Of a stretch of 64,000 nt of DNA, positions 3,144 to 38,960 are shown in pieces. The notes under the pieces were generated by a model. The model had not been told where the DNA came from. It saw only the letters and a program-made list of their open reading frames with translations, and did not search any database. The position numbers were made by a program, and so were the translations under genes. The stretch covers positions 17,316-81,315 of the forward strand of contig CASGDZ010000003.1 of assembly GCA_949300385.1 (NCBI GenBank), written 5' to 3'. This stretch comes from an uncultured Christensenella sp. GTDB lineage: Bacteria; Bacillota; Clostridia; Christensenellales; UBA1242. Every line of letters begins with the position of its first letter. The stretch's first letter is position 1.

Positions 3144-3172
3144 AAAAAACGAGTTTGAACTCGTTTTTTATT
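3144..3172. terminator. bidirectional terminator shared by convergent genes
   Basis: AAAAAACGAGT-TTGA-ACTCGTTTTTT hairpin. It overlaps the stop codon (3168-3170) of the minus-strand gene. Confidence 0.7.
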
Positions 3173-14400: not shown

Positions 14401-17400
14401 ATTGATTTCCTTCAAATCCACCTTCTAATTTACCTATGAATGAAGCATATATCATTAAAGGAGAAGCGGGCTGACTTGTACTTAGCACTGAAATTAAACC
14501 TGCCGATTGCGTACTACCAACAATATAGGCATTTGTGCTTGAACTGATAATAGTATTTACATTATTGTATGATGTATTATCATTTACGCCACCTGATATT
14601 CCGCCATTGGCGCCACCAATTAATCCTGCAACATAATTTAAGCCAATTATGTCTGCCTCTCCTGAGATTGAACTAGATTGAGAATAATCCCAACGATAAC
14701 TATAAACTGAGCAATATTTCAAATAACTATTAGTCGCCTGACCAATAATTCCGCCAACATTATTTCCGCCGATTATTGCCCTGGAAGAATCTGAAAGTAT
14801 TTGATAATGTACATCAATATAAATACCATTAGTATCTATTCCTACTATTCCGCCGACATTATTGCCACTAGCACTTATTGTAACAACAGATTTCACATTA
14901 TATAAACTATAAATATTTTTGCTATTATCAACGCTATCATTAATGTACAATTCTACATTACTTAAATGATTGTTTTCTAATGCATTAAGACTTACTAAAA
15001 CTTCATGTTCAATCCCTTCATTTTTACCTACGACTCCGCCTACATTGTTATGAATAGCATAAATTGTTCCTGCGACATATGCGTTAGATAAAGTTGCATT
15101 TTCGCCATTAATTCCAATAACTCCACCTACTACACTCTCAATATTTTTCATATTAGAATTAATATTAATATTAGAGATTGCGCCCTCATTCCCTATAAAT
15201 ATTCCAAATATTACATTTGAATTAGATATAGTTGTTGATCCGTCACTAGCGTTGACATTTAAACCTGTTTTGCTTGCATTTTCACCAGAATATCCGCTAA
15301 TAGATTTATTATTCACACCGACAAGACCGCCAAAATTAATTTTTGCATCTCCGTTGATAGTTATTGCTCCACTCACACCGATAATAGTATTTGAAGTATA
15401 ACTAATGGTTCCGTCATTAATTCCTACAAGTCCGCCAAAGTTTATAATATTATTTGAACCATTTAATGTCACACTACCAGAAATTACTGCTGTAGTGTTA
15501 ATAAGTTCGCCATTGTTTATATCAAATAAACCTAAATTATATGCTGTAGTTGCTGTAAAATTATAATTATATACTACATTAAAATTTATGTTAGAAATAG
15601 AGCCAGAGAAGTTAGTAAATAAGTTTTTGGTATTATCGTCAAGTGTTATTCCCGATATAGTATAAACATATTGAACACCATCTTCTTCAAATGTAGTGAT
15701 AGATCCAGTAAATCCATCTATAACCTTTTCGCCTGTATAAGTAGTATTATTCAAATTAATATTTGCCATGAGTTGATAGTGCGCCGACTTCATAGTATCA
15801 TTTGAGTTAATTTCCCAAAAATCATCTGAATTAAATATTAAATATGGGCTTGTTTTTGTTCCGTTTGACAAAACCAATTCGATAACAATATATGCTTCGT
15901 CATATAGTCCAATATTAGTACCTGTACCCTGCATTATAAATTGTGAAGGATTGTCAAACCCAGAAGCAAATTTACTTAAATCGTCCGCTAAAACATCTTT
16001 TGCAAAAACTATTAACTTTAAATTACTAGAACTTGAAATATTATCGCGCACACTAATTGTGTGGTTTTCGTTATTGATAACAACATTATTTGTATTTACA
16101 TTGCCGTACCTATCAACAACTATCATATACACATCAGGCGAGGTTATTTCCCCGAGTTGCGCTAGATTTTTAACAGTAAGGGTATAAGTCTCACCAGCCT
16201 TTAGATTTAAATAATAATTATTACTGCTTTCACTGACTTCTTCAAGTTCGCTAGTTATTTGTAAATGTTCAGTAAAAATAGGAGTTTCAACATTTATTGT
16301 AAAAATAAGCGTGAATGGATCTTGATTAAACTGAGTAAATGTTGCATATATTGTAACGCTATAAGACAACGCAGAAGAATATCCAAATTGTAAGCCTATT
16401 GAATAATCATTTTGAGATAAAATCGTTAGCAAATCTTTATCATTATTTGTATTCCATGTTACATTGTATTTTAAATTTTCGTTTGACTCAACTGATGAAT
16501 CAGATGAATTTTCTTCTAAATTTTCCGCATTTTCATCTGAAACATATGTTAAATTTGATTCCCGCTTTTGAACATAATTCCAAAGTGAATTATTAGACAA
16601 ACTGATTGATAACTCTGCGCGTGATAAATCTTTATAATAGGCTCCTAAACTATCATACATGTATCTAGTAATGGTTGTTGCGTCTATTGTTTGTCCATCT
16701 ATTGTAATATTGGCGTGTATATCATCTAACTCAATTTGCTCATAAATAAAGAATGTTAGCGCTAATTCAATTGTGTTTGTTCCGTCAATTGTGACAATAT
16801 TAGAATAATTTTCTACGCTGATAAGAACCTGTAAAGTAACATATTGCAAACTGTCAACATATGTTCCTTTCACAAATGATAATTCTGCACTATTATCTAA
16901 CGAACCATTATTATAAACATTTATAAAATCATTAACATTATATTCTGCACTACCTGACCAAATAACATTAAATTTGTATGATAGCACTTCATATACTTCG
17001 TCTAGATCTACCGCAAAATCTAGTGTTTGTCCACTAGCAACTATATAATCAGCAGTATATTCCGAGAATAAATATTCTTTTCCCCCAAGTTCGTCATATC
17101 TTATAAAATTTTTAAATGCCGAATCATTTTCATCAATTATATAGTTAACATCTTCATCTGTTAGCGCTTGATATACTTTACACTTAATTTCTATATATCC
17201 ATTATTTCCGCCGTCATAATTAGGAAAATATATAGTAATAATGTAATCACCTATATCCGTTTTACTATCAAATATGAGCAATATATTATTATAGATAGAT
17301 TCAGAGGCTTTGTAATTAAATGTAATTTCTGTTTGTCCGATAACGGATTTCCCATTTCCGTCATTCTGTGCATACTGCTTAATTTTAAGCGGATTATCCT

Positions 17401-26022: not shown

Positions 26023-26910
26023 ATGCGAATAAGTATGTCAAAATTAAATTCTATGTTGAGTGAGCGAAATTATAATACCGAAGATTTAATAAAATACATA
26101 GGTCTAACAAAAGATACTTTTTCAGCATCTATTAATGATGAAAATGAAAATACTTCACTTTTAAATAAAATATGCGAATTTTTAGATTGCGAACCTAGAC
26201 AATTATTAGACTATAATCCAATTTTAAATTCACTTAGACAAGAAAAAGAAGAAGGAATAAACTCTAAAATTTACGAGTTAACACAAGTAAAATTAACATA
26301 CTCGTCATTAGATATTTCAAATTATGGCTTAACCGAAAAGCAAATAGCCCACATTTTTGAAACGAACAATATCGCTACCCTACCAATAACAACAGCCATA
26401 GAGACTCTTATCGAAATAAATAATCATTTCAAATGTATCGATTATGTAATCGATAATGCCGAAAGTGAACTAAGCGAATTTTTTATTAAGCAACTTCATT
26501 ATATTTTAAACCAAGGTACTGAATATTCTCGCTCTAGTCTAATAGGCGAATTCATTTTTCAGACATCAGATGTAAATGATAATACAATCGATATCCCTTA
26601 CAAGATGAATGAATTATTAACAAACTACAATTCAATAAAAAATAAAAATTTAGGTGCTATAATTAAATTTTTATATTATTTCATACAGATATCACCTTTT
26701 GAAAGAAGTAATGATACGATAGCGCGTTTGTTAGCTTTCAAAGAATGTTTAAAATACAACATCATTCCTTTTTACATTGACAACACCCACAAAAATGAAT
26801 ACAAAAAAGGGTTATCTGATTGGAAAAATTCAAGTAGTTTTCTAATACACGCTTGCAAAATAGGTCAAGCGAATTATTCTCAACTTTTATCTCATTTTAA
26901 TATAAAATAA
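26023..26910 (+). CDS. HTH (XRE/Cro-like) plus Fic-domain protein with a degenerate Fic motif
   Basis: The N-terminal 60 aa look like a Cro/C1 HTH. ISPFERSNDTIARLL aligns to the Fic signature HPFxxGNGRxxRLL with His replaced by Ser and GNGR by SNDT. Shine-Dalgarno is AGGAG. Confidence 0.65.
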   Translation: MRISMSKLNSMLSERNYNTEDLIKYIGLTKDTFSASINDENENTSLLNKICEFLDCEPRQLLDYNPILNSLRQEKEEGINSKIYELTQVKLTYSSLDISNYGLTEKQIAHIFETNNIATLPITTAIETLIEINNHFKCIDYVIDNAESELSEFFIKQLHYILNQGTEYSRSSLIGEFIFQTSDVNDNTIDIPYKMNELLTNYNSIKNKNLGAIIKFLYYFIQISPFERSNDTIARLLAFKECLKYNIIPFYIDNTHKNEYKKGLSDWKNSSSFLIHACKIGQANYSQLLSHFNIK

Positions 26911-26990: not shown

Positions 26991-27527
26991 ATGGAAGGTA
27001 AAGGAATCGTTCGAAGAGTTGACGAATTAGGTAGAATTGTTTTACCACGCGAAATGAGAAAAATGTTAAATGTTCGAGTCGGTAGCAAATTAGAAATAGG
27101 TATTGTTGACGGCAATAAATTTTTATTGACAAAATATAGCGACATGGCTAGTCTAAAAGAATATAGCGATGCAGTTGCCTCTGCAATTTCGGTTAGTATT
27201 GAACACGATGTCCTAATTTCAGACATGGAAAAAGTACTTTCCTCTAACAAGAAAAAATACATTAATCGCAATTTAAGCGAAGAAGTACAAGAATTAATTT
27301 ACAATAAAGAAATCATTGTAAAAAAACAAGCGGACGGAAGCGAAATGTTGAAATTCTTTAATGACTTGTCAGGCGATTATAGTTGCCAACTAATCGTACC
27401 TATAATAAAAGACGGCGATGCTATTGGAGCGATCATCATACTCGCGGTTGAAAATAAATGTTTTGATGATAGTAGTGTGAAAGTATGCAAAGCGTTTAGT
27501 AAATATTTAAGTGACCAAATTTCGTAA
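26991..27527 (+). CDS. spoVT: stage V sporulation regulator SpoVT (AbrB-type swapped-hairpin N-domain plus GAF-like C-domain)
   Basis: GIVRRVDELGRIVLPREMRKMLNVRVGSKLEI matches the AbrB/SpoVT N-terminus. The 178-aa length matches SpoVT. Shine-Dalgarno is AGGAGAA. Confidence 0.85.
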   Translation: MEGKGIVRRVDELGRIVLPREMRKMLNVRVGSKLEIGIVDGNKFLLTKYSDMASLKEYSDAVASAISVSIEHDVLISDMEKVLSSNKKKYINRNLSEEVQELIYNKEIIVKKQADGSEMLKFFNDLSGDYSCQLIVPIIKDGDAIGAIIILAVENKCFDDSSVKVCKAFSKYLSDQIS

Positions 27528-28087: not shown

Positions 28088-28128
28088 CAAAAAAAGGATA
28101 ATGTAAGTTACACTATCCTTTTGTTTTT
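28088..28128. terminator. bidirectional terminator between the membrane protein gene and virB4-like
   Basis: AAGGATA (28094-28100) pairs with TATCCTT (28114-28120), flanked by an A-run and a T-run. Confidence 0.6.
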
Positions 28129-28152: not shown

Positions 28153-30903
28153 CTATCTTTTTGGACCTTCACCCATGATATATTGTACAGCAGGGAATGC
28201 AATAATATCAACAAACGATCTATCCATAGGCCCTGTTATAAAGAATGCTCTACCGCGCGGTGCAGTTACAATACCTTCTTGTTCCTGCGCGTTTATTCCG
28301 CCTGCTGACTTGTAAAGTTCTAGCAAATCAGCCATATCGTTAGGCGCTAATTGTAAAATCATACTATATTGACATGCGTTAATGATCGCTGCTGACCTTC
28401 TTTGAATTTCTGGCGTTCCTAAGAAGTCTTTAATATTTTGTGTAATTACAATCTGCATACCTTGATATTTACGAATACGCTTAGCCATCTCTGCCATGAA
28501 GTTCAATGCAACTGGACTATCTGGATCGATAAACATATGCGCTTCATCTACCGCAATGACGACTTGTCGCTTAATATCTTTACCTGTCCTTTGATAATAT
28601 TGTTCATTAAAACGCTTATTATTGATAATTTCATTATTAAGGTATTTAAATACTAGCAACATTTGAGCATTCGCAAGTTTATTATTTTTACTTGCAAATA
28701 GCGTTTGGAAGTTAAATGTAATTAAGTTTTCATCTGTCAAAATAGAAGTTGGTCCGTTCCACAAATCTGAGTTACGACCGCCAGTCGCAAATTTTTGAAT
28801 ATATGTCTCAAGAATTAAAAGGTTGTTTCTGTAGAAAGGATCTTTCACCGTTTTAAGTTTAGACTTAATAAGCGCAAACAAATCGTCAAATATAGGATAA
28901 TCTTCCGCCTTTAACTTACCGATATTTGTCTTTTCATTAATACCCTTTTTATTATACAATTCAACGACTAATGTATTAAGCGTTTCAAATGCGTCCGAAC
29001 TAATACCTTCCAAAATTGCACGGAAGAACTGCTCTAAGAACTGCAAGTGAGTAAAGAATGTTTTATTACTACCTTTTTGAACGATATCATCTATCGCCAC
29101 ATCGTCAATGTTATCTGAACTATTCGCCGCGTCTAAGTCCTCAAGCGAAGCCATTATATGGAACGGGTTAAGAATACCGGATGAATTTGTACCCACATCG
29201 ATAACTTTACCACCCAAATTTCTTGTCATTACATCATATTCTTGCTCAGGGTCTAAAATAAACATTTTTGTTCTATCTGCCGCCAGATTCGTTAAAATCA
29301 TTTTTGTTGCATAAGATTTACCTGAACCCGACTTACCGATAACCATCATATTTGAGTTAATACGACCTTTTCTTGCGTCACGAGTGAAGAAATCAATAAA
29401 TACAGGATATCCGCTCGAACTTGATTGTCCAAGTGCAAAACCTGCAGGATCTTGCATAATAGAGTCTACCATAGGGAAAGACGCTGCAATAGTTGTTGAC
29501 GGCATGCTACGATAGAATGGTTTTAGTGTGTCTAACCTATTCACACTCGAAGATATGAAGGCGTCAACTTGCCTACCAAACAAATCAGAGTATTTAAATC
29601 CATATTGTTTTAAGACATTTCGAACTTCTTTTCGCTTATCTTCTTCAACTCGCAGATGGATTGAAATATCATACAATTGCTCATTATTTGTTTTCAAATC
29701 TTTTAAAAGTGTTTGTAATGATTCAATATCCGCTTCACGCTCGATAATTTCGCTCGATCTAAAAGTCCTATCCAACTTTGACTCTTTTTCCATAACCGCG
29801 CGATCGATAGTTTTTTCGCCCTTTTCCTTGTCAACTGGCATAATGTTCATAATAACACGAGTGCCGAGTTGACTAAATATAGGATAAGCCCAACCATTGC
29901 CTACTTCAAGTGGATAATTTGAAATTACCATTTGCTTATAATTCTTTTTATCCATTTCGACGCGCGCCACTTTGAAATTGATTCTATTTGGCATAACCCA
30001 ATTATTGATTTGACTTGGTGCCAATCCATCGATTTCTTTTTCGCTATAAACCGATTGATAGTTCGATTTTAAGAAACTAATTAAATCATCTTCCGTCAAA
30101 ATATCCGCCGATATCGTATATTGTCCAGTACTCAAATCGTTACAAATTCCAATACAAGTTTCTTCCAAATTTGTTCTATCATTTCCATATAACACCAAAT
30201 AGAAGTGATCTTGTAATACAGGTTCCGCACGAATTGCATTGTTTAATCGCTCAACACGCTCTCTAAATATAATCGAACGCGCCTCCATTTCGGCTTCAGT
30301 GTACTGACCCGCCTCATATAACTCGTTAAGTAATTCAAATTTTTTATCGTCATTTTTTAAGAAAATATCAAATCTCATCGGCTTAACATTTTTAATTAAA
30401 CTCGCCCGCTGATATTGAGAAATTCTCTTAAGCGCTTTACTAAATGTCATAATAAGTGAATCTTGAGCGGATTCTTGCATAAGGTCAAGTGCAACAGGGT
30501 GTATTTCAATAACCATTCCCGAATAATCACCGAAATCAATAAATTTACCCACATCAATATTTAAGAAAGGTGTAAGTTTTTCTATTGATTTTGACCTTGA
30601 TTTTTTTGAATTAGGTTGCATTTTTATATATTTCTTAGGAAAGGCAGCAAATCTAATAATAAGTCCAATTGAACTATAAAGCCTTAGCCCATCGTCAATA
30701 GGAATATACATACCGATAACGATCGCGATCCAACCCAATAGTGCGTACCAGCGGTAATCTACGCCATCGATTTTAAACAAATTGCTCGCAATAATAACTA
30801 CAGCAAAGATAAGGCAGATAACCGCAAGTATGATATCTCCAAACGAAATATTTTTAAAAAATTCAGTTTTAACCCGAGTTTTCCCCGGAATATATCTAAT
30901 CAT
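28153..30903 (-). CDS. virB4: VirB4/TraE/TcpF-family T4SS ATPase with an N-terminal two-TM VirB3-like segment
   Basis: Walker A VIGKSGSGKSYATK, Walker B QVVIAVDEAHMF, and IVITQN downstream. The 916-aa size fits. Two N-terminal hydrophobic helices are present. Shine-Dalgarno is GAAGGGG. Confidence 0.85.
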   Translation of the reverse strand: MIRYIPGKTRVKTEFFKNISFGDIILAVICLIFAVVIIASNLFKIDGVDYRWYALLGWIAIVIGMYIPIDDGLRLYSSIGLIIRFAAFPKKYIKMQPNSKKSRSKSIEKLTPFLNIDVGKFIDFGDYSGMVIEIHPVALDLMQESAQDSLIMTFSKALKRISQYQRASLIKNVKPMRFDIFLKNDDKKFELLNELYEAGQYTEAEMEARSIIFRERVERLNNAIRAEPVLQDHFYLVLYGNDRTNLEETCIGICNDLSTGQYTISADILTEDDLISFLKSNYQSVYSEKEIDGLAPSQINNWVMPNRINFKVARVEMDKKNYKQMVISNYPLEVGNGWAYPIFSQLGTRVIMNIMPVDKEKGEKTIDRAVMEKESKLDRTFRSSEIIEREADIESLQTLLKDLKTNNEQLYDISIHLRVEEDKRKEVRNVLKQYGFKYSDLFGRQVDAFISSSVNRLDTLKPFYRSMPSTTIAASFPMVDSIMQDPAGFALGQSSSSGYPVFIDFFTRDARKGRINSNMMVIGKSGSGKSYATKMILTNLAADRTKMFILDPEQEYDVMTRNLGGKVIDVGTNSSGILNPFHIMASLEDLDAANSSDNIDDVAIDDIVQKGSNKTFFTHLQFLEQFFRAILEGISSDAFETLNTLVVELYNKKGINEKTNIGKLKAEDYPIFDDLFALIKSKLKTVKDPFYRNNLLILETYIQKFATGGRNSDLWNGPTSILTDENLITFNFQTLFASKNNKLANAQMLLVFKYLNNEIINNKRFNEQYYQRTGKDIKRQVVIAVDEAHMFIDPDSPVALNFMAEMAKRIRKYQGMQIVITQNIKDFLGTPEIQRRSAAIINACQYSMILQLAPNDMADLLELYKSAGGINAQEQEGIVTAPRGRAFFITGPMDRSFVDIIAFPAVQYIMGEGPKR

Positions 30904-30961
30904 TTTACCCCTTCTAATCTATTACTTTTTTTCATTCTTTTTATTTTGGCGCTTTACAAGT

Positions 30962-33181
30962 TTATTTTTTGTCACCCTTGTTTGAGTCTTTGTTTTCTTT
31001 TATAGCTCTTCCAAAATCTTTACCATTTTCTATAATTGCAGATACAATACTCTTGTTCATATCCTTAGTATAATTGGTCATTCTATTTACTGAAGCATCT
31101 ACTTGTTTTACGACATCGAATAATTTTTCATTTTGAGCTTTTTTCAAGTCTTCTAATGTCGCGAAAATGTCTTCTGACAATTCTTGATTTACCGATGTAT
31201 CATTAGTATCAAGTTTTATACCATTTTTTAAACTCTTTAATTCTTCTGTTAATTTTTTTATTGGATCTACGAATTCTTTAATTGAATCTTGCATAGCCAT
31301 ATACTCACGAACAGCCTCGTTACTATCCCTTCTAAATTGTTTTTCATCATTACTAATTGATTTATCTTCCAGCTCTTCTTTAGTGTATAACTTACCAACA
31401 TTCATATTCTCTTGAGTAACGCTATCAAATCTTTGTTTATACCTTTCAGCTTTTTGAGTTGCTTTATCCATGTTTTTCAATTCGTCTGTTAGCTCTTTAT
31501 TTTTTGACTCTACTTGCTCATATTTTGCCTTATCAACTTTTAAAGATTTTAATGCTTCTGCAACATATCCTAAATCTTTAAGTTTAGACAAAGCTTTAAT
31601 AGCATCTTTAGGGAGTTCTGAGGTTGGAGAATAATTATCCTTTAAAGATTTAATTAACTCTCTTTCCTCATGGTTTTGTTTAGCCTCTTGCTTTCCTTCT
31701 TTCTGAGAGCTTTTCACTTTATCGGTATCAACTCCTGCATCTTTAGCTACTTTCTTTAAATTATCTTTAATTTGCTTTTTTATAGGATATCCAATTCCTG
31801 ATCTAATGTCACTTCTTTGTTCTTCTTTAAGCTGTTTTTCAATAGCACTTTTCTGTTTTTCTTTTTCTTGTGCGGTCAAATCAGCATTATTGTCAATTTC
31901 TTTGAACATATTATTTTTTAATTCTTTATAATAACTATGTGTTCCAATTCTTCTAGCTCCAGCAGCAAACGCTCCAGTAACTTTTTGCCCCGCTTTTTGT
32001 GTGGTTTTTTTAAGTCTGTCTTTTGTGCTAGACCATAAACCTTTACCATCATTTAGAGCATCTCCGCCACCAATATAACCATTTATCAACGATATAAAAT
32101 CTTTGACAACATATAATCCCGCGACTGTTAGGAGTAAAGTAGTTAAATCAACTATATTTAAGATTCCACCTGTTATATTCCAATCGAAACTGATGGTTTG
32201 AATTAGTGGAGAAATACTAAAGAATAAATTCATGCCAGCGATTGCGCCATATGCACTAATAGTGTTACTTATAAAATTGCCCTTCCATTTACCTACTGCA
32301 CTTCCTCCGTCAAGCGGATATAAAGCGCATAATGCAGGACTAATAATAAATAAGAATATAAGCATAAACATGCGCTTTATCATACCAAAAGTTATATAGA
32401 ACATGGAATAAAGTACAAATATTCCACCGCCTGCCAAAATAATATAATTTATGTTTATTAAGTTGTACCATATGCCGACAGACACCCAATCACAATAATT
32501 CCACTGATTGCTAGCCATTGCTTGATCTACACAATCTGCATAATATTCAAGGTCAGAATCTCCATTAGGATCATTAGAAAATGCTCGAATAGTAATTCCA
32601 TTACTTTCACAAAATTCTTTAATTTCATTATATTCTGTTTCGTCTATTGTCGAACCATATTTTGTACCTGTACGAATGTTGTTTGCTGAATATGCCGAAA
32701 CTAAGAAAATTTGACCGCTTAAATTTGTATTAGATTCGCTTAATCTAGTTGCTCCATCAATGGCATTTAATAGGATATTGCCTAACCATACACCAAGCAG
32801 ACAGCAAACAGGTAAAAATATGAAATTAGCAAGACCTTTAAAGGCATTTCCCACGATCTCTTTCCAAGACTTAGGTTGCGCAGCATATACATTTTTAATA
32901 AATGCCATTGTGGTAAAAATTACAATTAAGAATAACGCTAAAAATGAAATAGATATTAACAAATTTTTAACCAATGTTGTATTCAACAAATAGAACACAA
33001 GTCCAGTATCATTTACTTCGCCTGTATTATTTGAACCAATATTGCCGATAGAATCAATCCTTGCAACCCCTGTGCCTGCAAAAGTCGCAAATAATTCTTG
33101 CATCATATTAATAAGCACAAATATTATAGTGAATAAAGGATAAATAATCGTACCTAATGTTTCTAGTATTCCATCTACCAT
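30962..33181 (-). CDS. polytopic membrane protein with a long cytoplasmic K/E-rich coiled-coil tail; VirB6/TrbL/TcpH-like candidate
   Basis: About 6-7 TM helices fill the first 400 aa or so, followed by roughly 340 aa of charged helical sequence. It lies immediately upstream of virB4 and is likely co-transcribed with it. Shine-Dalgarno is AAGGAGA. The call rests on architecture and position only. Confidence 0.55.
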   Translation of the reverse strand: MVDGILETLGTIIYPLFTIIFVLINMMQELFATFAGTGVARIDSIGNIGSNNTGEVNDTGLVFYLLNTTLVKNLLISISFLALFLIVIFTTMAFIKNVYAAQPKSWKEIVGNAFKGLANFIFLPVCCLLGVWLGNILLNAIDGATRLSESNTNLSGQIFLVSAYSANNIRTGTKYGSTIDETEYNEIKEFCESNGITIRAFSNDPNGDSDLEYYADCVDQAMASNQWNYCDWVSVGIWYNLININYIILAGGGIFVLYSMFYITFGMIKRMFMLIFLFIISPALCALYPLDGGSAVGKWKGNFISNTISAYGAIAGMNLFFSISPLIQTISFDWNITGGILNIVDLTTLLLTVAGLYVVKDFISLINGYIGGGDALNDGKGLWSSTKDRLKKTTQKAGQKVTGAFAAGARRIGTHSYYKELKNNMFKEIDNNADLTAQEKEKQKSAIEKQLKEEQRSDIRSGIGYPIKKQIKDNLKKVAKDAGVDTDKVKSSQKEGKQEAKQNHEERELIKSLKDNYSPTSELPKDAIKALSKLKDLGYVAEALKSLKVDKAKYEQVESKNKELTDELKNMDKATQKAERYKQRFDSVTQENMNVGKLYTKEELEDKSISNDEKQFRRDSNEAVREYMAMQDSIKEFVDPIKKLTEELKSLKNGIKLDTNDTSVNQELSEDIFATLEDLKKAQNEKLFDVVKQVDASVNRMTNYTKDMNKSIVSAIIENGKDFGRAIKENKDSNKGDKK

Positions 33182-33233
33182 TTTGTCTCCTTCTTATGCG
33201 TAAGTGCACCCATAAACTTTTTATCTAGTATAT

Positions 33234-33262
33234 ATTATATACTATTGCGACAAATTAATCAA
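33234..33262 (-). promoter_or_regulatory. candidate promoter of the virB6-like/virB4 operon
   Basis: On the minus strand: TTGATT (33262-33257), 17 nt, TATAAT (33239-33234). Confidence 0.35.
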
Positions 33263-33448
33263 TAAAAAGACATTAAAAATTTTTAATATAGGTAAATTAA
33301 TATTAATTTAACTAACTAATCGACATAATAAAAAATCTCAGTTTACTATTTTTAATCCGTATTAAATTTTAGGTAATATTGTTTAAATATTTTTAATTAT
33401 CAAATTTATTTATTCTTTTAAAATAATTTTTAAATTATAAAAAATCAA

Positions 33449-33475
33449 CATAAAAAATGCGGTAAATCCGCATTT
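33449..33475 (-). terminator. terminator of the 493-aa gene
   Basis: AAATGCGG-TAAA-(T)CCGCATTT hairpin overlaps the stop and is followed on the minus strand by a T-run. Confidence 0.6.
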
Positions 33476-34955
33476 AATTTGTTACCTTATTATCAGCAAA
33501 AGCAAATTTACAATTGCTAGTAAAATCTAATTGTATTCCGCCATTTTTTTTAATCGAATAAACACTATCTTCTGTCGTTCCTGTATTAATTTCTAAATAT
33601 ATATTAAAATCACTTTCACCTTTTTGTGAAGCGTATATTATATCCCAAGTGGACACACCCGCGGATAAATGACCTAAATTGTTCACATCAATATTTGTAA
33701 ATGTTGTTGCTGAAAGATTAAACCCTTCCGCACTAAAATAATACGCACCCAACTCTTCATCTAAAATTTCCGATTCCATAACTACATTAGTTGTTCCGTC
33801 GGTTATTGTGATAGAAAACTCGTTTAAATCAATATCCTTTCCGCCAACATTCATTTCTAAATCGGTCAATGTTACATTCATTTTTGGCATATAAATAGCC
33901 ATAATATAATCTTCTTGTAACAAGTTATTTATACCGCCATCTTCTGCGAAAATATAATCTTTAACATATAATTTTTCAGCACGAATAGTAGTCGCATTAT
34001 TGAAATACTCATCAATAGTCGTAGAAATCATACTCTCAATTGAAGAATCATCTACGCTACTCTCGTCTTCAGTATTTGTTGTATATAAATCGTTTGAATT
34101 AATATAATCTTTAATCAAAATAGCAATTTCGCTATTCATATCACTAGATAATCCAAAATATTTGATATTATCAAGTTGCGACATTGTATCACTAATTGTC
34201 CCATCTGGATTGTCAAGCGCATATACTATATCTATAATTCCATTATTTGCACCATTTCCAGCCAATAACTGATAGAGTTCGGGGTATTCATTTGCAAATG
34301 TAGACTCATTAAATTTTAAATAATCATAATTAGTTGGGATATTAATGTTAATTGTTAAAGAGTAATCATTTTCTTTGCTCTCAATACTATCTACAACATT
34401 TTCAACAATGACTACATATTCATTTAACAAATCTGCACGCGCTTGTTCGTCGTCAATATATATCGTTCGTATCCCATAATAATTTGAACCAGTCATAATT
34501 GGGCTATCAGGTGTGATTCCTTCCGAATCCGAATTCCCAGTTAACCAACCAAACATACTATCAAACCAAGCCGCTATTGCCGAGCCAATAACTAGTATAA
34601 TAAAAAACCCCAAGAAGATTAATGCCAATATACCAATAGCGCTAGCTATATATCTCAATATTTGTTTTTTTCTATCAAGTGATCGATTTATTCCCCTAAC
34701 AATATTGGGATAATTTTTTCTTCCTTTTTTCATTAAGGTTTTTTCTTTATATGATAAAATCGGAAATACTCTTCCTTTGACACTTTTTCTAAGTTGAATT
34801 AATTGATTTCGAAATGATCTGTCTTCTGCTTTTTGTTTTTGAGATAATTCAGCATCTCGAGTTTCAAGATCTTCTTCGTCTTCGGTTTCTACATCAACTC
34901 CATATTGTTTGTCATCATCTTCAAATTCTTCCTCATTGATATTATTCTCTGCCAT
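33474..34955 (-). CDS. bitopic T4SS-associated protein of unknown family: acidic cytoplasmic N-terminus, one TM, about 360-aa extracytoplasmic domain
   Basis: The N-terminus is E/D-rich. The TM helix is ILRYIASAIGILALIFLGFFIILVIGSAIAAWF. The outer domain is N/D/T/Y-rich. Shine-Dalgarno is AAGGAGAT. It has its own terminator. Confidence 0.6.
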   Translation of the reverse strand: MAENNINEEEFEDDDKQYGVDVETEDEEDLETRDAELSQKQKAEDRSFRNQLIQLRKSVKGRVFPILSYKEKTLMKKGRKNYPNIVRGINRSLDRKKQILRYIASAIGILALIFLGFFIILVIGSAIAAWFDSMFGWLTGNSDSEGITPDSPIMTGSNYYGIRTIYIDDEQARADLLNEYVVIVENVVDSIESKENDYSLTININIPTNYDYLKFNESTFANEYPELYQLLAGNGANNGIIDIVYALDNPDGTISDTMSQLDNIKYFGLSSDMNSEIAILIKDYINSNDLYTTNTEDESSVDDSSIESMISTTIDEYFNNATTIRAEKLYVKDYIFAEDGGINNLLQEDYIMAIYMPKMNVTLTDLEMNVGGKDIDLNEFSITITDGTTNVVMESEILDEELGAYYFSAEGFNLSATTFTNIDVNNLGHLSAGVSTWDIIYASQKGESDFNIYLEINTGTTEDSVYSIKKNGGIQLDFTSNCKFAFADNKVTN

Positions 34956-35131
34956 AATATCTCCTTAGGTTTATTATATCAAATTAGCAATAAAATTACA
35001 AATATTATTGAAACATATTTGTATTTTAAATCTCAAAATAAATTCTATATCACATTGACTAAAATATATATTCAGTTAAATTTAACTTACAATTTTTATA
35101 ATGATGTGAATTTAATGTTATATTATATAAA

Positions 35132-35154
35132 ATAAAAAAGACGGATACCGTCTT
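35132..35154 (-). terminator. terminator of the pilin-like gene
   Basis: AAGACGG-ATA-CCGTCTT hairpin with a T-run on the minus strand. Confidence 0.65.
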
Positions 35155-35179
35155 TCTCTTACTAATCAAACTTACAGTT

Positions 35180-35518
35180 CTAAGCAACAAGCACTTTAAG
35201 AGCTGTACCTATGGAACCTGTTTCATTCCACCAATTATTGAATGTAATTTGTCCTTCTTTTATAGCATATGCTAACCAGTAGAACAATGCTATCAACAAT
35301 CCTGTAACAACAATTCCGACAATTACTGAAATAAGTTTTGCTTTTGCCTCATCACGCTCACCTTTTTCATCCGCCTTGACAAATTTTACGCCAACAACTA
35401 TAGCATATATAACACCAGCGGTTGCAGCTAATATCAAAATAGGATTAATGACATTTGTCATAGCGTTTACCAAAGTGTTCATCCAATCTGGTAATGTAGT
35501 TTCCATTAAAGTGCTCAT
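35180..35518 (-). CDS. VirB2/TrbC-like (pilin-like) two-helix membrane protein
   Basis: The 112-aa product has two hydrophobic helices separated by the charged loop KADEKGERDEAKAK. Shine-Dalgarno is very strong (AAGGGGGAT). The gene is monocistronic with its own terminator. The family call rests on topology and context. Confidence 0.5.
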   Translation of the reverse strand: MSTLMETTLPDWMNTLVNAMTNVINPILILAATAGVIYAIVVGVKFVKADEKGERDEAKAKLISVIVGIVVTGLLIALFYWLAYAIKEGQITFNNWWNETGSIGTALKVLVA

Positions 35519-35799
35519 AAAATATCCCCCTTACACAACACAACAAAAATATTTTGTGTCAATTTATGTCATAATATTAACAATTTAGAAATTTAAAATC
35601 AACTAATTTTAATATGTTTTTTAATTTTTTTGCATTTTTATTTAATTTTATTAAATTCATATTTAATAGTTTTACCCTATTTTTATATAATTAATCAGAT
35701 TTTTATTTAAAATTTATATTATTAATTTTATATTTTTAATTAATTTACAAATTAATTTCATTAAAGTAAAAATAATAAAATAAACATTTTAACTTTTAA

Positions 35800-35828
35800 T
35801 TGACAAAATACGCGACATTATATAATAT
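35800..35828 (+). promoter_or_regulatory. candidate virD4 promoter
   Basis: TTGACA (35800-35805) is followed either by TATAAT (35821-35826, 15-nt spacer) or by TAATAT (35823-35828, 17-nt spacer). Confidence 0.35.
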
Positions 35829-35875
35829 AAATATAGATTTATGTAAAAATAATTAAAAGCAATAAAAGGATAAAT

Positions 35876-37891
35876 ATGAAAGATTTTTTAAAAAAGGCAT
35901 TAAAATATCTTATCTTAGCAATTGTAGTTTATGTTGTTGCAACTATCATCATGACATATATCAATGAAGGTACAATAAGTTTCGGTGTTAAATATGCGAC
36001 AAGTGGACAACCATTTATCTTTGTATTTTTAGCGGTTGGTGTATTGCTAGTATACGACCTTTTACGAATACTAGACGGCAAGGGCGGGAAAAAGAAAAAA
36101 GATAAAGCGATAGATAAAGTTACAGACTCTCACGGAAACGAAACAACTCAATACTTCAATAGAGAATTCGTAAGCGAAGAAGAACTAAAAACAAATAAAA
36201 GTTATAATTACAACACTTTGTCAACTTTGAAAAATTGCAAAAAAGATGGTATACTTGTACGCGCAGACGAGTCAAAGGGCAAAATGGAAATTAACTTCGT
36301 CGAACCTATTCATACATTGATAGTAGGTACAACATCATCTGGTAAGACATCGCGTTTTGTCGTTCCGTCATTGCAACTTATGAGCATGACAGCCGCAAAA
36401 CCATCATTTGTTATAACTGACCCAAAAGGCGAATTATACGAAAAAGACGCAAATCATTTTATCGAGCAAGGTTATGATGTTAAAGTGTTAGATATTCGTG
36501 ACCCGTTTGCGTCAACTCAATGGAACCCATTAACATATGCATTTGATATATACACTCGTAGTTTCTCGCTAGAAAACGAAGTGCGTGTGCATCCTGCGGG
36601 CGATAACCCAAGAAGTTATAATCTAGTATTGCAACGCGATTTTGATTATGCTACTACAACATGGTTCGAGTTCGACGGAAAAGCATATGCAGACAAATCA
36701 GCATTAGAAAATGATATGCGCGTATTGTCAAGAAAATTGCGTGACGACACATACAATGCGCTTAATGACATTTGTACCACTCTCGCACCTATCGAAAGCG
36801 ATAAAGACCCTTCTTGGGAGCGCACAGCACAGCGATTAATTCACGCTGTAATGCTAGCCATGCTTGAAGATAGTAGAATACCTGAATTAGGAATGACGCG
36901 TGAGAAATATAACCTTTATAATGTACAAAAAATTTGTAATATAACAGACAGCGGTCGTGACACTTACGCAACGCTTAAAAAATATTTATTTGACTATCGC
37001 GATAAATTTTCACAAGTTCATGACCTTGCTTCTACCGCGCTTAACAACGCAGAAGGCACTTCTAAAAACTATATGGGCTTCGTTTCAAGTAAAACGGCTA
37101 TGTTCAGTGATGCTGGTATAAGTTTCATGACAGAAAAAACCGAAATTGACTTCATCGACATAGACGAAAAGCCAACAGCAATATTCCTAATCATTCCAGA
37201 CGAAATTCGCGTGCGTTATCCTTTAGCAATTTTATTCGTAACTCAATTATATAAGCGTCTAGTTGAAAAAGCGCAATCTATGGGCGGAAGATTAAAACGA
37301 AATGTTTACTTCATGCTAGACGAATTTGGTAACATGCCTAAATTCCCACAATTTGCATCCATTATGACAGTCGGTAGATCGCGTGGTATATTCTTCGAAC
37401 TTGCCGTTCAATCATATAGTCAGTTATACCAAATTTATGGTCAAGAAGAAGGTAAAATCATTAAAGACAACTGTCCTATTCAAGTTTATATCGCAACAGA
37501 AGATATGACAACAAACAAAGAATTTAGCGAGTTGCTTGGTAAAAAGACAATTCGACGAGAATCTGAAAATAAATCGGTTGGACCAGATGGTAAAGAAAGC
37601 AAATCGACAACGCCAACTATCGAATCTATACCACTTGTATATCCTGAACAATTAATGACATTTAGAGATAAAGGTGAAATCATTATTAAAACATTCTCTC
37701 CAAACGCTTGCTTAAAAACAAAAATTTCATCATGTTATACATCTAAAGTCTATAATATCTCAGAAAAGGGCGACATATATAGACCACGCCGTATGTTTGA
37801 CGAGAATGCAGTGTTCTATGATGCTAGACGAAGAAATCAAATCATGGCACAACAAAATGATGACGACGATGATGACGATGACTTATTCTAA
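35876..37891 (+). CDS. virD4: VirD4/TraG-family type IV coupling protein
   Basis: Two N-terminal TM helices, Walker A IVGTTSSGKTS, Walker B YFMLDEFGNM, and VQSYSQLYQIYG, the T4CP-typical Q..QL..YG. The C-terminus is DDDDDDDDLF. Confidence 0.85.
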   Translation: MKDFLKKALKYLILAIVVYVVATIIMTYINEGTISFGVKYATSGQPFIFVFLAVGVLLVYDLLRILDGKGGKKKKDKAIDKVTDSHGNETTQYFNREFVSEEELKTNKSYNYNTLSTLKNCKKDGILVRADESKGKMEINFVEPIHTLIVGTTSSGKTSRFVVPSLQLMSMTAAKPSFVITDPKGELYEKDANHFIEQGYDVKVLDIRDPFASTQWNPLTYAFDIYTRSFSLENEVRVHPAGDNPRSYNLVLQRDFDYATTTWFEFDGKAYADKSALENDMRVLSRKLRDDTYNALNDICTTLAPIESDKDPSWERTAQRLIHAVMLAMLEDSRIPELGMTREKYNLYNVQKICNITDSGRDTYATLKKYLFDYRDKFSQVHDLASTALNNAEGTSKNYMGFVSSKTAMFSDAGISFMTEKTEIDFIDIDEKPTAIFLIIPDEIRVRYPLAILFVTQLYKRLVEKAQSMGGRLKRNVYFMLDEFGNMPKFPQFASIMTVGRSRGIFFELAVQSYSQLYQIYGQEEGKIIKDNCPIQVYIATEDMTTNKEFSELLGKKTIRRESENKSVGPDGKESKSTTPTIESIPLVYPEQLMTFRDKGEIIIKTFSPNACLKTKISSCYTSKVYNISEKGDIYRPRRMFDENAVFYDARRRNQIMAQQNDDDDDDDDLF

Positions 37892-37908
37892 AATTATAAT
37901 TAAATGAT

Positions 37909-37941
37909 AAAAAACTAGCCTGGCGCTAGTTTTTTGTTTTT
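37909..37941 (+). terminator. virD4 terminator
   Basis: AAAAACTAGC-CTGGC-GCTAGTTTTTTGTTTTTT. Confidence 0.7.
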
Positions 37942-38070
37942 TATTAAATCCATATTTCTTTACCTACATAATTTGTAATAAATATTATAGAAATATTATA
38001 TTTTATGTAAATTATAGTATTTGTTCTAGATTAATTCATCATATTATTAATAATTGAAATTATTATAAAT

Positions 38071-38124
38071 AAATTATTATCAATCGTATTTTTAGATAAA
38101 TTATTATCAATTGTATTTTTAGAA
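38071..38124. repeat. 27-bp tandem direct repeat, two copies, 25/27 identical
   Basis: AAATTATTATCAATCGTATTTTTAGAT followed by AAATTATTATCAATTGTATTTTTAGAA. A partial third AAATTATTAT lies just upstream at 38057. Confidence 0.85.
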
Positions 38125-38238
38125 ACAGTTTATTAATTGCCAAACAACATAATTAATTTATCATTATAAATTTAAATGTATTATCAATCTGTCAATTTTT
38201 TAATATAATTTACATCAATAATAATAAAAATTAAATAT

Positions 38239-38502
38239 TTATTCCACCAAAATACCTGTAGACAAAAAATACTCTTCTTCAAACTCGCGAATTAAGTCGA
38301 TTTTTGATTTTTTTGGCGTCAAATACATTATGACATTTTCAATCTCAAATTTAATTGTAGTATTTATATTTAATAATTTATAAAAATCTAACGCTTGTTT
38401 TATTATTTCTTCATAATCATTACCTTTACTTAATCCCACCAAACGAATCAACTCTCCATTGACAAATTCAGCGAAAACCGACTTATATCTCTTTCTAATC
38501 AT
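38239..38502 (-). CDS. hypothetical 87-aa protein
   Basis: The start is moved to MIRKRYK, which follows a strong GGAGGA Shine-Dalgarno (complement of 38509-38514). No motif was recognised. Confidence 0.5.
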   Translation of the reverse strand: MIRKRYKSVFAEFVNGELIRLVGLSKGNDYEEIIKQALDFYKLLNINTTIKFEIENVIMYLTPKKSKIDLIREFEEEYFLSTGILVE

Positions 38503-38665
38503 GCTATCCTCCAAAAATTTAATATTATATATAATATTCGTGACATAATGATATAGTTCATATTCGCAAAATTTCCTAAAATACGACAAATTTATAAAAA
38601 AATAACCAACTTTAGATTAATAATTTTTTATTATAAGAAAAAATTGGAACTAAAATTTAATACCT

Positions 38666-38723
38666 AAAAACTCGATTATTTTCGAGTCTACTTCGCTAAA
38701 GGGAGTTAATTTGAACCAACGAC
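38666..38723 (-). pseudogene. degenerate copy of the tRNA-fMet 3' part (T arm and acceptor) with a copy of its terminator hairpin
   Basis: About 80 percent identical by eye to 38855-38912. The T stem (CCAAC to TAACT) and the acceptor/CCA are destroyed, so it cannot be a functional tRNA. Confidence 0.6.
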
Positions 38724-38852: not shown

Positions 38853-38879
38853 GAAAAAAACTCGGATTAATTCCGAGTC
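38853..38879 (-). terminator. terminator of tRNA-fMet
   Basis: ACTCGGA-TTAAT-TCCGAGT hairpin with a T-run on the minus strand (A-run 38854-38860 on plus). Confidence 0.7.
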
Positions 38880-38883
38880 TACT

Positions 38884-38960
38884 TGGTTGCGGGAGTTGGA
38901 TTTGAACCAACGACCTTCGGGTTATGAGCCCGACGAGCTGCCGTGCTGCTCCATCCCGCG
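38884..38960 (-). tRNA. initiator tRNA-fMet (anticodon CAT), CCA encoded
   Basis: The reverse complement reads CGCGGGA-TG-GAGC-AGCACGGC-AGCTC-G-TCGGG-CTCATAA-CCCGA-AGGTC-GTTGG-TTCAAAT-CCAAC-TCCCGCA-A-CCA. It has the C1xA72 mismatch and three G-C pairs closing the anticodon stem, which are the initiator hallmarks. Confidence 0.92.

Follow-up and report, generated by a model that had tools for sequence, protein, structure and literature searches.

The DNA analysed here is a 64,000-nt stretch (the window) of the 101-kb metagenome contig CASGDZ010000003.1, whose source is a bacterium resembling Candidatus Onthoplasma (Christensenellales, GTDB family UBA1242). At positions 28153–37891, flanked by housekeeping genes, it carries five adjacent genes, which encode a VirB4-type ATPase, an extended VirB6-like membrane protein, a bitopic protein of 493 aa, a VirB2-like pilin and a VirD4/TraG-type coupling protein. 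The explanation favoured overall, with modest confidence, is that these genes form a vertically inherited, chromosomal, minimal Gram-positive type IV secretion system (T4SS) that serves as a core machine of Candidatus Onthoplasma. That the T4SS is domesticated, non-mobile and functional is very probable. A preliminary description of this DNA had offered domestication as one of two alternatives, and it is supported by a fixed address, a low ratio of nonsynonymous to synonymous substitution rates (dN/dS) and co-divergence with housekeeping genes. As to its role, analogy suggests contact-dependent exchange with partner cells that would support a dependent lifestyle, a proposal that is made tentatively and with somewhat more doubt than confidence.

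Homologues of the VirB4 ATPase fall into more than 120 clusters with 81–93% identity, labelled Candidatus Onthoplasma or unclassified Clostridia/Christensenellaceae. A scan with one genome per GTDB species yielded 62 loci, each viewed over ±10 kb around VirB4, and synteny was read from tblastn and from clustering of open reading frames (ORFs) over all loci. Apart from the main group, these loci include a divergent Onthoplasma subgroup whose VirB4 is 62–66% identical (L042, L044, L048, L052, L056, L061 and L063). Protein families were assigned by Pfam and/or NCBIfam scans, which in the window covered ORFs of 100 aa or longer that neither lie inside nor overlap longer ORFs; about 10 of the scanned ORFs remain without any family.

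Components and expression signals of the cluster

The five ORFs have exactly the coordinates and lengths (916, 739, 493, 112 and 671 aa) given in the preliminary description, and its assignment of the cluster to the T4SS is confirmed by profile matches for the VirB4, VirB6-like, pilin and VirD4 proteins. The VirB4-type ATPase (28153–30903, minus strand, 916 aa) carries an N-terminal membrane hairpin, and its translation contains the Walker A motif GKSGSGKS, found in 62/63 VirB4 orthologues, and the Walker B motif VDEAH, both as previously reported. Residues 11–900 match NF045975 (Mbov_0397 family conjugal transfer ATPase of integrative and conjugative elements (ICEs), VirB4_plasma) with 556 bits, below the equivalog cut-off of 590, and the next family, CD1110, follows with 132 bits (cut-off 325). 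The protein is also matched by TIGR00929 and TIGR02746, and residues 483–913 align with the Thermoanaerobacter VirB4 structure 4AG5 (E 2.6e-42). By hydropathy, the N-terminus consists of one strong and one weaker hydrophobic helix, and this hairpin is included in the NF045975 model, of which positions 10–883 are aligned. Of the VirB3–VirB4 fusion proposed earlier, the hairpin is seen; no VirB3, PrgI or TrsC profile matched the VirB4 N-terminus, and the VirB3-like label is one of topology.

The VirD4/TraG-type coupling protein (35876–37891, plus strand, 671 aa), with two predicted N-terminal transmembrane (TM) helices, contains the motifs GTTSSGKTS and LDEFGNM in its translation, again as first described. 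It passes the cut-offs of PF02534 (E 2e-44), PF12696 and PF10412, reaches 280 bits against NF045973 (VirD4-like CD1115 family, cut-off 250) and also matches TrwB and Cag5. A C-terminal poly-Asp-Leu-Phe tail (of the ...DDDDDDLF type) is present in 34/35 orthologues with a complete C-terminus. The reading that the two ATPases are of the FtsK/HerA type, and the cluster hence not a T4SS, would draw on weak Pfam matches that the 916-aa protein shows to DUF87/HerA (39 bits) and, below cut-off, to FtsK_SpoIIIE (23 bits). This identity is rejected, and its probability is practically nil, given the full-length VirB4-family and 4AG5 matches, the VirD4 families matched above cut-off and the adjacent VirB6-like and pilin genes; the call as a T4SS stands.

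The extended VirB6-like polytopic membrane protein (30962–33181, minus strand, 739 aa) matches NF045848 (MMCAP2_0566 family conjugal transfer protein) over residues 12–375 with 98 bits (cut-off 90), and its N-terminus also matches NF045889 (Mbov_0396 ICE transmembrane protein). Both families are VirB6-like components of mycoplasma ICEs (PMC12857230). The earlier likeness to ‘TcpH or VirB6’ thus holds for VirB6, and the closest model is CDS16/Mbov_0396/MMCAP2_0566, not TcpH. Hydropathy and the positive-inside rule predict six TM helices with both termini inside, an outer loop at about 144–240 and a cytoplasmic charged tail. The protein comprises a conserved TM domain (1–400), in which the outer loop is variable, and a hypervariable charged tail (420–739, within the C-terminal ~340 residues). 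Column conservation is 0.5–0.7 in the TM core, 0.24–0.45 in the outer loop and 0.14–0.28 in the tail. In the loci L020 and L025, VirB4 and the pilin are 99% identical and the VirB6-like protein only 50% (tail ~20%), with dS doubled; the tail compared corresponds to window positions 30962–31920, and the pattern suggests either allele replacement by recombination or very rapid divergence.

The pilin (35180–35518, minus strand, 112 aa) consists of two hydrophobic helices around a basic loop. The VirB2-like topology noted at first is backed by a match to PF18895 (T4SS_pilin) of 32.9 bits, above the cut-off of 26.6; against NF045849 (Mbov_0395 pilin-like) the score is 30.6 bits, under the cut-off of 40. 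The core of the pilin is conserved in 47 orthologues and its C-terminal end is variable. Downstream of it, the slot before the 493-aa gene is vacant in the window and holds small genes (~120–170 aa) in about a dozen species (L012, L018, L020, L023, L024, L025, L027, L029, L031, L040, L050 and L053). In the three representatives that were read, the encoded proteins show a signal of the lipoprotein type, including a Cys lipobox.

The 493-aa bitopic protein (33474–34955, minus strand) represents a new family, defined by HMMER, an AlphaFold2 model and synteny. The preliminary description recognised no family for it, and sequence searches of Pfam, NCBIfam and the PDB (the PDB also by profile) likewise gave no match. 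A word-indexed homologue search, even with a profile, returned 4 sequences only, and the AlphaFold2 model built from those 4 was poor, with a predicted local distance difference test (pLDDT) score of 48.8. Exhaustive HMMER searching of 1.84 billion representatives recovered 218 clusters, nearly all of ~500 aa and matched over their full length, and the AlphaFold2 model from an 82-sequence alignment reached a pLDDT of 88.5 and a predicted template modelling (pTM) score of 0.72. In the model, an acidic, disordered N-terminus is followed by long helices, among them the single TM helix (~103–128), and then by an α/β domain (159–320) and a β-sandwich (325–490). Hydropathy and the positive-inside rule predict a cytoplasmic N-terminus and a strongly acidic ectodomain of 369 residues, with 16 K/R against 62 D/E. 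A Foldseek search with this model gave nothing with E<0.001 (best E 0.03 in the PDB and 0.06 in BFVD), and the β-sandwich showed only faint CBM32/jelly-roll-like echoes. A VirB8/NTF2 fold (PrgL/TcpC) and a hydrolase fold (lytic transglycosylase/CHAP), either of which the arrangement of secondary structure had led one to suspect, were not supported, since neither was among the top Foldseek matches.

Several residues of the 493-aa protein are invariant or nearly so (R163, F267, G268, D333, Y160, G161, Y166, D168, K328, Y350 and S435) and mark a conserved surface or site. Its dN/dS of 0.08–0.36, at a mean pairwise identity of 29%, and the variability of the VirB6 outer loop are as expected of exposed contact surfaces. 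The gene lies between those of the pilin and VirB6 in 42 loci, and its product is treated as a lineage-specific T4SS component.

Terminator-like hairpins lie 3′ of the VirB4 gene (28092–28122), the 493-aa gene (33455–33475) and the pilin gene (35134–35158) on the minus strand, and 3′ of the VirD4 gene (37906–37938) on the plus strand. They divide the cluster into the units pilin, 493-aa and VirB6–VirB4 on the minus strand and the divergent VirD4 unit on the plus strand. The VirB6-like/VirB4 unit is headed by a promoter-like site, TTGATT-17-TATAAT (33234–33262, minus strand), a consensus match only. Each gene has a Shine-Dalgarno sequence, as previously noted: AAGGGGGA for the pilin, AAGGAG for both the 493-aa and the VirB6-like protein, GAAGGGG for VirB4 and AAGGA for VirD4.

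The predicted pilin promoter (35574–35602, minus strand) is conserved across the genus as a box in the VirD4–pilin spacers. It combines a −35 element TTGATT (35602–35597), which lies within the box TTAGTTGATTTTAA, with a 17-nt spacer and a TG-extended −10 element TAATAT (35579–35574), and an A-rich tract lies upstream. Exact 12-mers of the box TTAGTTGATTTTAA occur in 27/35 VirD4–pilin spacers; with two mismatches allowed, the box sits at a near-constant distance upstream of the pilin in most loci, the divergent subgroup included.

Downstream of this promoter, the 5′ untranslated region (UTR) of the pilin mRNA contains a conserved hairpin with a 7-bp stem (35537–35560, minus strand), which immediately precedes the invariant GGGGG Shine-Dalgarno. 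Its covariation was measured on the main-group alignment (23 sequences) with a specified structure: pairing is kept in 91% of cells, against 22–61% with slid partners, compensatory double changes occur in 5/7 pairs, and 0/500 shuffles match the observed score. The divergent subgroup has other hairpin sequences at the same leader position; it is misaligned in the mixed pilin-leader alignment, on which RNAalifold predicted no structure. Together, the promoter, the hairpin, the invariant Shine-Dalgarno and the pilin’s own terminator look like a device for high and stable pilin expression. The leader can be compared with the 5′ stabiliser hairpins of Bacillus mRNAs.

A shared chromosomal address

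Across the loci, one gene order recurs: VirD4 on the opposite strand, pilin, an optional small lipoprotein, 493-aa protein, VirB6, VirB4 and SpoVT. VirB4 is present in 63/63 loci, the VirB6-like gene in 54, the pilin in 46, SpoVT in 44, the 493-aa gene in 42 and VirD4 in 36, where it is divergent from the pilin gene; absences mostly coincide with contig ends. Wherever a locus is long enough to show it, the pilin–(493)–VirB6–VirB4 block adjoins spoVT. Lengths are stable, with 907–935 aa for VirB4 and 667–695 aa for VirD4. Short Onthoplasma copies are contig-end cuts only, and no frameshifted copy exists among the Onthoplasma loci; an apparent frameshift is seen solely in the outgroup L059, at 44% identity. 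The view that the cluster is maintained rather than decaying is thus well founded, since about 60 species carry the block intact and in synteny, with strong purifying selection acting on it; conserved position and purifying selection in relatives, both proposed as checks in the preliminary description, were found.

The conserved neighbour on the VirB4 side is a SpoVT-like AbrB-family regulator (26991–27527, plus strand; PF15714, PF04014). Its gene stands next to VirB4, or within a few genes of it, in 44 loci, in either orientation, and it is itself very strongly conserved, with a dN/dS of 0.004–0.06. It is possible that the protein regulates the T4SS; alternatively, the pairing may just reflect old synteny. 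A sporulation ‘feeding-tube’ role, an idea that arose from this constant neighbour, was dropped, as nothing beyond adjacency backs it.

Selection was measured as NG86 dN/dS in the closest species pairs only, because dS is saturated for most species pairs. In these pairs, dN/dS is 0.008–0.05 for VirB4 and 0.03–0.07 for VirD4, beside 0.004–0.07 for the flanking housekeeping genes SpoVT, TadA, M14, Dus and MurJ, and it stays below 0.5 for all parts of the cluster. The dS values are similar in T4SS and housekeeping genes, and both sets have therefore diverged for the same time. Pairwise identity of VirB4 follows that of SpoVT (rho 0.89), TadA (0.85) and MurJ (0.89), and mean VirB4 identity is above that of every flanking gene. 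The same address in about 60 species, the low dN/dS and the co-divergence rule out an ICE that is still mobile as well as a relic in decay.

In keeping with this, relaxases, tyrosine/serine recombinases, DDE transposases, Rep proteins, VirB1/CHAP hydrolases and VirB11 were not found among the scanned ORFs of the 64-kb window, which bears out the earlier reading of its ORFs, and the neighbours examined within ±10 kb in other species likewise gave no relaxase family. The cluster is not bracketed by repeats, whether direct or inverted. The mycoplasma ICE genes CDS22 (DDE), CDS1, CDS14 (lipoprotein), CDS19/Mbov_0399 and CDS30 had no NCBIfam match in the cluster, its near neighbours or the Pfam-less ORFs. 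GC content is ~30% throughout the window and 0.27–0.36 in the cluster, inside the window range, so that the base composition is like that of the flanks, as had been stated.

An ordinary ICE transfer module, with its relaxase, integrase and attachment (att) sites beyond the window, could be imagined, as the window covers 64 kb of a ~0.9-Mb genome and has a tRNA-Met at one edge of the cluster with a partial tRNA copy near. This tRNA-Met (38884–38960, minus strand), the sole match in an Rfam scan of the region, is itself a conserved neighbour on the VirD4 side, lying within ~2 kb of the VirD4 3′ end in 23/36 loci scanned. The partial copy (38674–38723, minus strand) is a decayed pseudo-tRNA corresponding to the tRNA-Met 3′ half and terminator; it is 76% identical to 38865–38914, with the anticodon arm deleted. 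It is the only candidate for the tRNA-fMet scar that the preliminary description mentions in connection with an old ICE. Its reading as an att site was rejected: it lies 191 bp from the tRNA, as a decayed duplicate in tandem with it, and the VirB4 end has no copy. With the same spoVT-side address in about 60 species at saturated dS, co-divergence of VirB4 with housekeeping genes, flank-like GC, no bracketing repeats and one locus per assembly, an ordinary ICE is very improbable.

The second alternative of the preliminary description, the stripped core of an old ICE, would make the cluster a decaying relic without present function, and the reduced component set (no VirB1, VirB8, VirB11 or relaxase) is what such a relic might look like. 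Against this stand the intact Onthoplasma copies, the ATPase dN/dS of 0.008–0.07 and the conserved promoter, UTR hairpin and Shine-Dalgarno, and as a relic the cluster is scarcely credible. An ancient ICE origin, from which no att repeats were left behind, is plausible.

Beyond the conserved block, the genes that vary within the ±10 kb sampled in other species code for housekeeping or surface proteins and in no case for mobility functions. Among them are LDH, NADH oxidase, YfhO, Wzy, VanW, RmuC, BspA-type leucine-rich repeat (LRR) proteins, M60-like peptidases and Listeria–Bacteroides-repeat proteins. Giant surface proteins lie near the T4SS in L026 (4031–8440), L030 (2207–6805) and L024 (13245–17054); they carry M60 (enhancin/mucinase-like) and F5/8 type C domains, or Listeria–Bacteroides repeats, and hint at an association with mucus or host.

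Related systems and possible functions

The best profile matches for the VirB4 of the cluster (hairpin included), its VirB6-like protein and its pilin-like protein are the T4SSs of Mollicutes ICEs and Spiroplasma plasmids. The counterparts are CDS15/Mbov_0395 (pilin-like), CDS16/Mbov_0396, CDS17/Mbov_0397 (VirB4) and CDS5 (TraG/VirD4), and VirB4 proteins of Spiroplasma plasmids align by tblastn over residues 22–902 with 25–28% identity. Gene order is also common to the two, as Mbov_0396–(small ORF)–VirB4–coupling protein or 0395–0396–0397, and in neither is there a VirB1- or VirB8-like part or a recognised relaxase (PMC12857230, PMC6030558). Unlike the Mollicutes ICEs, the Onthoplasma cluster resides in walled Clostridia with the standard genetic code, at a fixed site and with vertical inheritance; it lacks the DDE transposase, CDS1, CDS14, CDS19, CDS30, the ParA-like protein and the inverted repeats, has the 493-aa protein as an extra component, and uses a type IV coupling protein (T4CP) of the clostridial CD1115 family. 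The ~26% identity and the VirB4 score of 556 bits, below 590, point to a sister lineage of the Mollicutes T4SS and not to a recent transfer.

This kinship feeds the strongest rival to partner exchange, a chromosomal DNA-exchange machine that would carry out relaxase-independent transfer between Onthoplasma cells, or DNA release or uptake, and so provide recombination in a tiny-genome lineage. By profile (556 bits with NF045975 against 132 with the next family) and by tblastn, the nearest relatives are the Mollicutes ICE and plasmid systems, and mycoplasma ICE T4SSs without a recognised relaxase still move the ICE and chromosomal DNA (PMC6030558, PMC12857230). The absence of a relaxase here is therefore not enough to dismiss DNA transfer; from the earlier argument that a T4SS without a relaxase is non-conjugative, the observation stands for the window and the premise is weakened. 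The coupling protein, itself strongly conserved, moreover has a TrwB-type DNA-binding domain (PF10412). On the other side, occasional gene exchange hardly explains a VirB4 conserved beyond housekeeping genes across saturated dS, and other essential transfer genes of mycoplasma ICEs (CDS1, CDS19, CDS30, ParA-like, DDE) were not found in the window. SSB, DprA and a nuclease are not linked to the cluster in the window. Uptake systems such as ComB work without a T4CP, and the cluster keeps one. DNA exchange is accordingly regarded as unlikely, if far from negligible.

A further point in favour of DNA exchange comes from Mesomycoplasma hyopneumoniae, in which a pilin–0396–VirB4 module directly follows the chromosomal transformation gene dprA. 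This pilin–VirB6–VirB4 module lies among housekeeping genes without a T4CP or transposase nearby, and thereby resembles the T4CP-less form of the divergent Onthoplasma subgroup. It differs in belonging to the Mollicutes, in carrying the CDS19-like Mbov_0399 and in adjoining dprA. At NZ_LR214993.1 10412–20059 (L065) the genes are dprA, the Mbov_0395 pilin-like gene, Mbov_0396 (750 aa), Mbov_0397 (VirB4) and Mbov_0399, between eno and rpsT; a literature search found no paper on this dprA–T4SS cluster.

ComB of Helicobacter pylori and the GGI of Neisseria offer a likeness as chromosomal T4SSs exapted for a non-conjugative DNA function. Both belong to diderms, however; ComB lacks a T4CP, the GGI needs a relaxase and ParA/ParB, and the main Onthoplasma form fits neither. 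In the cluster, VirD4 is present and conserved, and neither ComEC nor DprA was found in the window.

Among the MPF_FATA systems of Firmicutes (CTn2 CD1110/CD1115, pCW3 Tcp, pCF10 Prg and ICEBs1 Con), the likenesses are a VirB4, a CD1115-family T4CP and a polytopic VirB6-like protein that, like TcpH/PrgH, has a long extension at its C-terminus. Unlike these, the cluster has no relaxase, peptidoglycan hydrolase, VirB8-like protein (TcpC/PrgL) or adhesin, and is not on a mobile element. Nearly all Gram-positive T4SSs are conjugative (PMC12857230).

The analogy on which partner exchange is built is with the Patescibacteria, whose T4SSs are chromosomal, relaxase-less and MPF_FATA-derived, with VirB2-like pilins, and are essential for the epibiotic growth of Southlakia (PMC12102498, PMC12857230). 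Like Southlakia epibionticum, Onthoplasma is a monoderm with a genome of ~1 Mb or smaller and a predicted dependence on a partner (PMC12102498, PMC12857230, PMC12306168), and it has a chromosomal, relaxase-less, MPF_FATA-related T4SS with VirB4, VirB6 and a PF18895-type pilin across the species recovered from the lineage. The differences are that Onthoplasma belongs to another phylum, has the VirB3-like hairpin fused to VirB4 with no TrsD match, one pilin gene instead of an array and no linked hydrolases, and that its T4CP is tightly linked and highly constrained.

The biology of UBA1242 agrees with such dependence. Its genomes measure 0.67–1.6 Mb, retain sporulation genes, lack ATP synthase and standard transporters and encode an incomplete glycolysis, and a partner-dependent, Patescibacteria-like lifestyle has been proposed (PMC12306168). 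Two of the genomes compared here, L020 (JBKSNA) and L045 (JBKSMT), are metagenome-assembled genomes of that 2025 mSphere study, classed as Onthoplasma, UBA1242 (PMC12306168). The family has also been tied to lower chicken body weight (PMC13155120).

In the mechanism proposed for partner exchange, VirB4, anchored by the VirB3-like hairpin, would power assembly, and the VirB6-like protein would form the membrane channel. An abundant pilin could then build a short pilus or a conduit through the wall, with the acidic ectodomain of the 493-aa protein outside the cell, where it would span the wall as a scaffold or act as a contact module and stand in for the missing VirB8-like component. VirD4 would recruit the cytoplasmic substrate via its poly-Asp-Leu-Phe tail. 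The constraint on the ATPases, stronger than that on neighbouring housekeeping genes, points to routine use, and partner exchange is for this reason ranked above DNA exchange.

Several points weigh against the favoured explanation and the role attached to it. The function is argued by analogy, and the systems nearest in sequence transfer DNA. VirD4 is kept and highly constrained in Onthoplasma, but the Patescibacterial model has a T4CP that is dispensable and not linked, so that the analogy is imperfect. No cell-wall hydrolase is linked to the cluster, though genes for wall functions (Alr, BacA, M23) are present in the window. The divergent subgroup has pilin–VirB6–VirB4–SpoVT without a 493-aa gene or VirD4 within 6–7 kb, which means that the five-gene composition is not universal. 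M60 mucinase-like neighbours in other species, finally, leave room for an animal host as the target instead of bacteria. As a separate observation on the divergent subgroup, coiled-coil and BspA-type LRR proteins are encoded divergently upstream of the pilin where upstream sequence exists.

The possibility of a host target leads to another rival, a translocator of effectors or toxins whose target would be the host mucosa or, in contact-dependent killing, competing bacteria. The conserved acidic C-terminal tail of the T4CP suggests adaptor- or substrate-specific recruitment, and can be likened to the pairing of TraD with TraM in F. The exposed parts of the system evolve fast, and its neighbours elsewhere include the giant M60 mucinase-like, F5/8-C and BspA-type LRR surface proteins. 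No effector or immunity candidate is conserved beside the cluster, however, where the conserved neighbours are housekeeping genes, and the probability given to a translocator of this kind is low.

Carried further, the partner-exchange proposal would make Onthoplasma and UBA1242 a case of Bacillota whose life depends on other cells or is spent attached to them, with the T4SS, its pilus-like conduit and the 493-aa ectodomain as an essential organelle that shares its stock of origin with the mycoplasma ICE machinery and converged independently with the Patescibacterial T4SS. This larger picture is speculative and rather doubtful. In a review of December 2025, the Patescibacterial T4SS, required for growth and with VirB2-like pilins, is described as unique among monoderms (PMC12857230). 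Under the favoured explanation, the cluster would be a second and independent case, in Clostridia, of a core-genome T4SS in a lineage with ~1-Mb genomes. No paper that ties UBA1242 or Christensenellales to a T4SS turned up in a literature search. The cluster would provide a molecular handle on how these widespread, uncultured gut bacteria might depend on other cells, and an evolutionary tie between their biology and the minimal conjugation apparatus of mycoplasmas. With the 493-aa protein, a new family without a detectable fold relative joins the T4SS parts list, in a five-gene system compact enough for structural or heterologous study.

Other features of the window

The identified flanks of the cluster comprise YabP/YabQ, RlmH, TadA, the SpoVT-like gene, tRNA-Met, U32 peptidase, CobW, Pth, Mfd, FtsH, TyrS, YchF, BacA and Alr. 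Between VirD4 and tRNA-Met lies a small conserved gene (38239–38505, minus strand) encoding ~88 aa without a Pfam match or other family; orthologues occupy the same position in 14 loci, and its membership in the system is uncertain. The same interval contains a 27-nt tandem repeat with the core ATTATCAATYGT in three copies (38063–38116 and 38181–38195). The repeats were dropped as candidate iterons or an origin of transfer (oriT), as they are absent in ten other species checked, the two closest included, and they are probably without significance.

On the opposite side, the SpoVT-like gene is adjoined by a helix-turn-helix (Xre-type) protein with a weak Fic/DOC match (26023–26910, plus strand). 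This gene occurs in only 4 loci, namely in the source contig, in its two nearest relatives and in a single species further off, and stands outside the conserved block. Further away, a 781-aa ORF (3168–5513, minus strand) has AT-hook motifs as its sole match, which is unusual in a bacterial protein. A 3620-aa ORF (8429–19291, minus strand), rich in N, S, T and I and without Pfam or NCBIfam matches, carries a lipoprotein signal (…LIFSAC); it represents a giant surface lipoprotein that takes up ~1% of the ~0.9-Mb genome.

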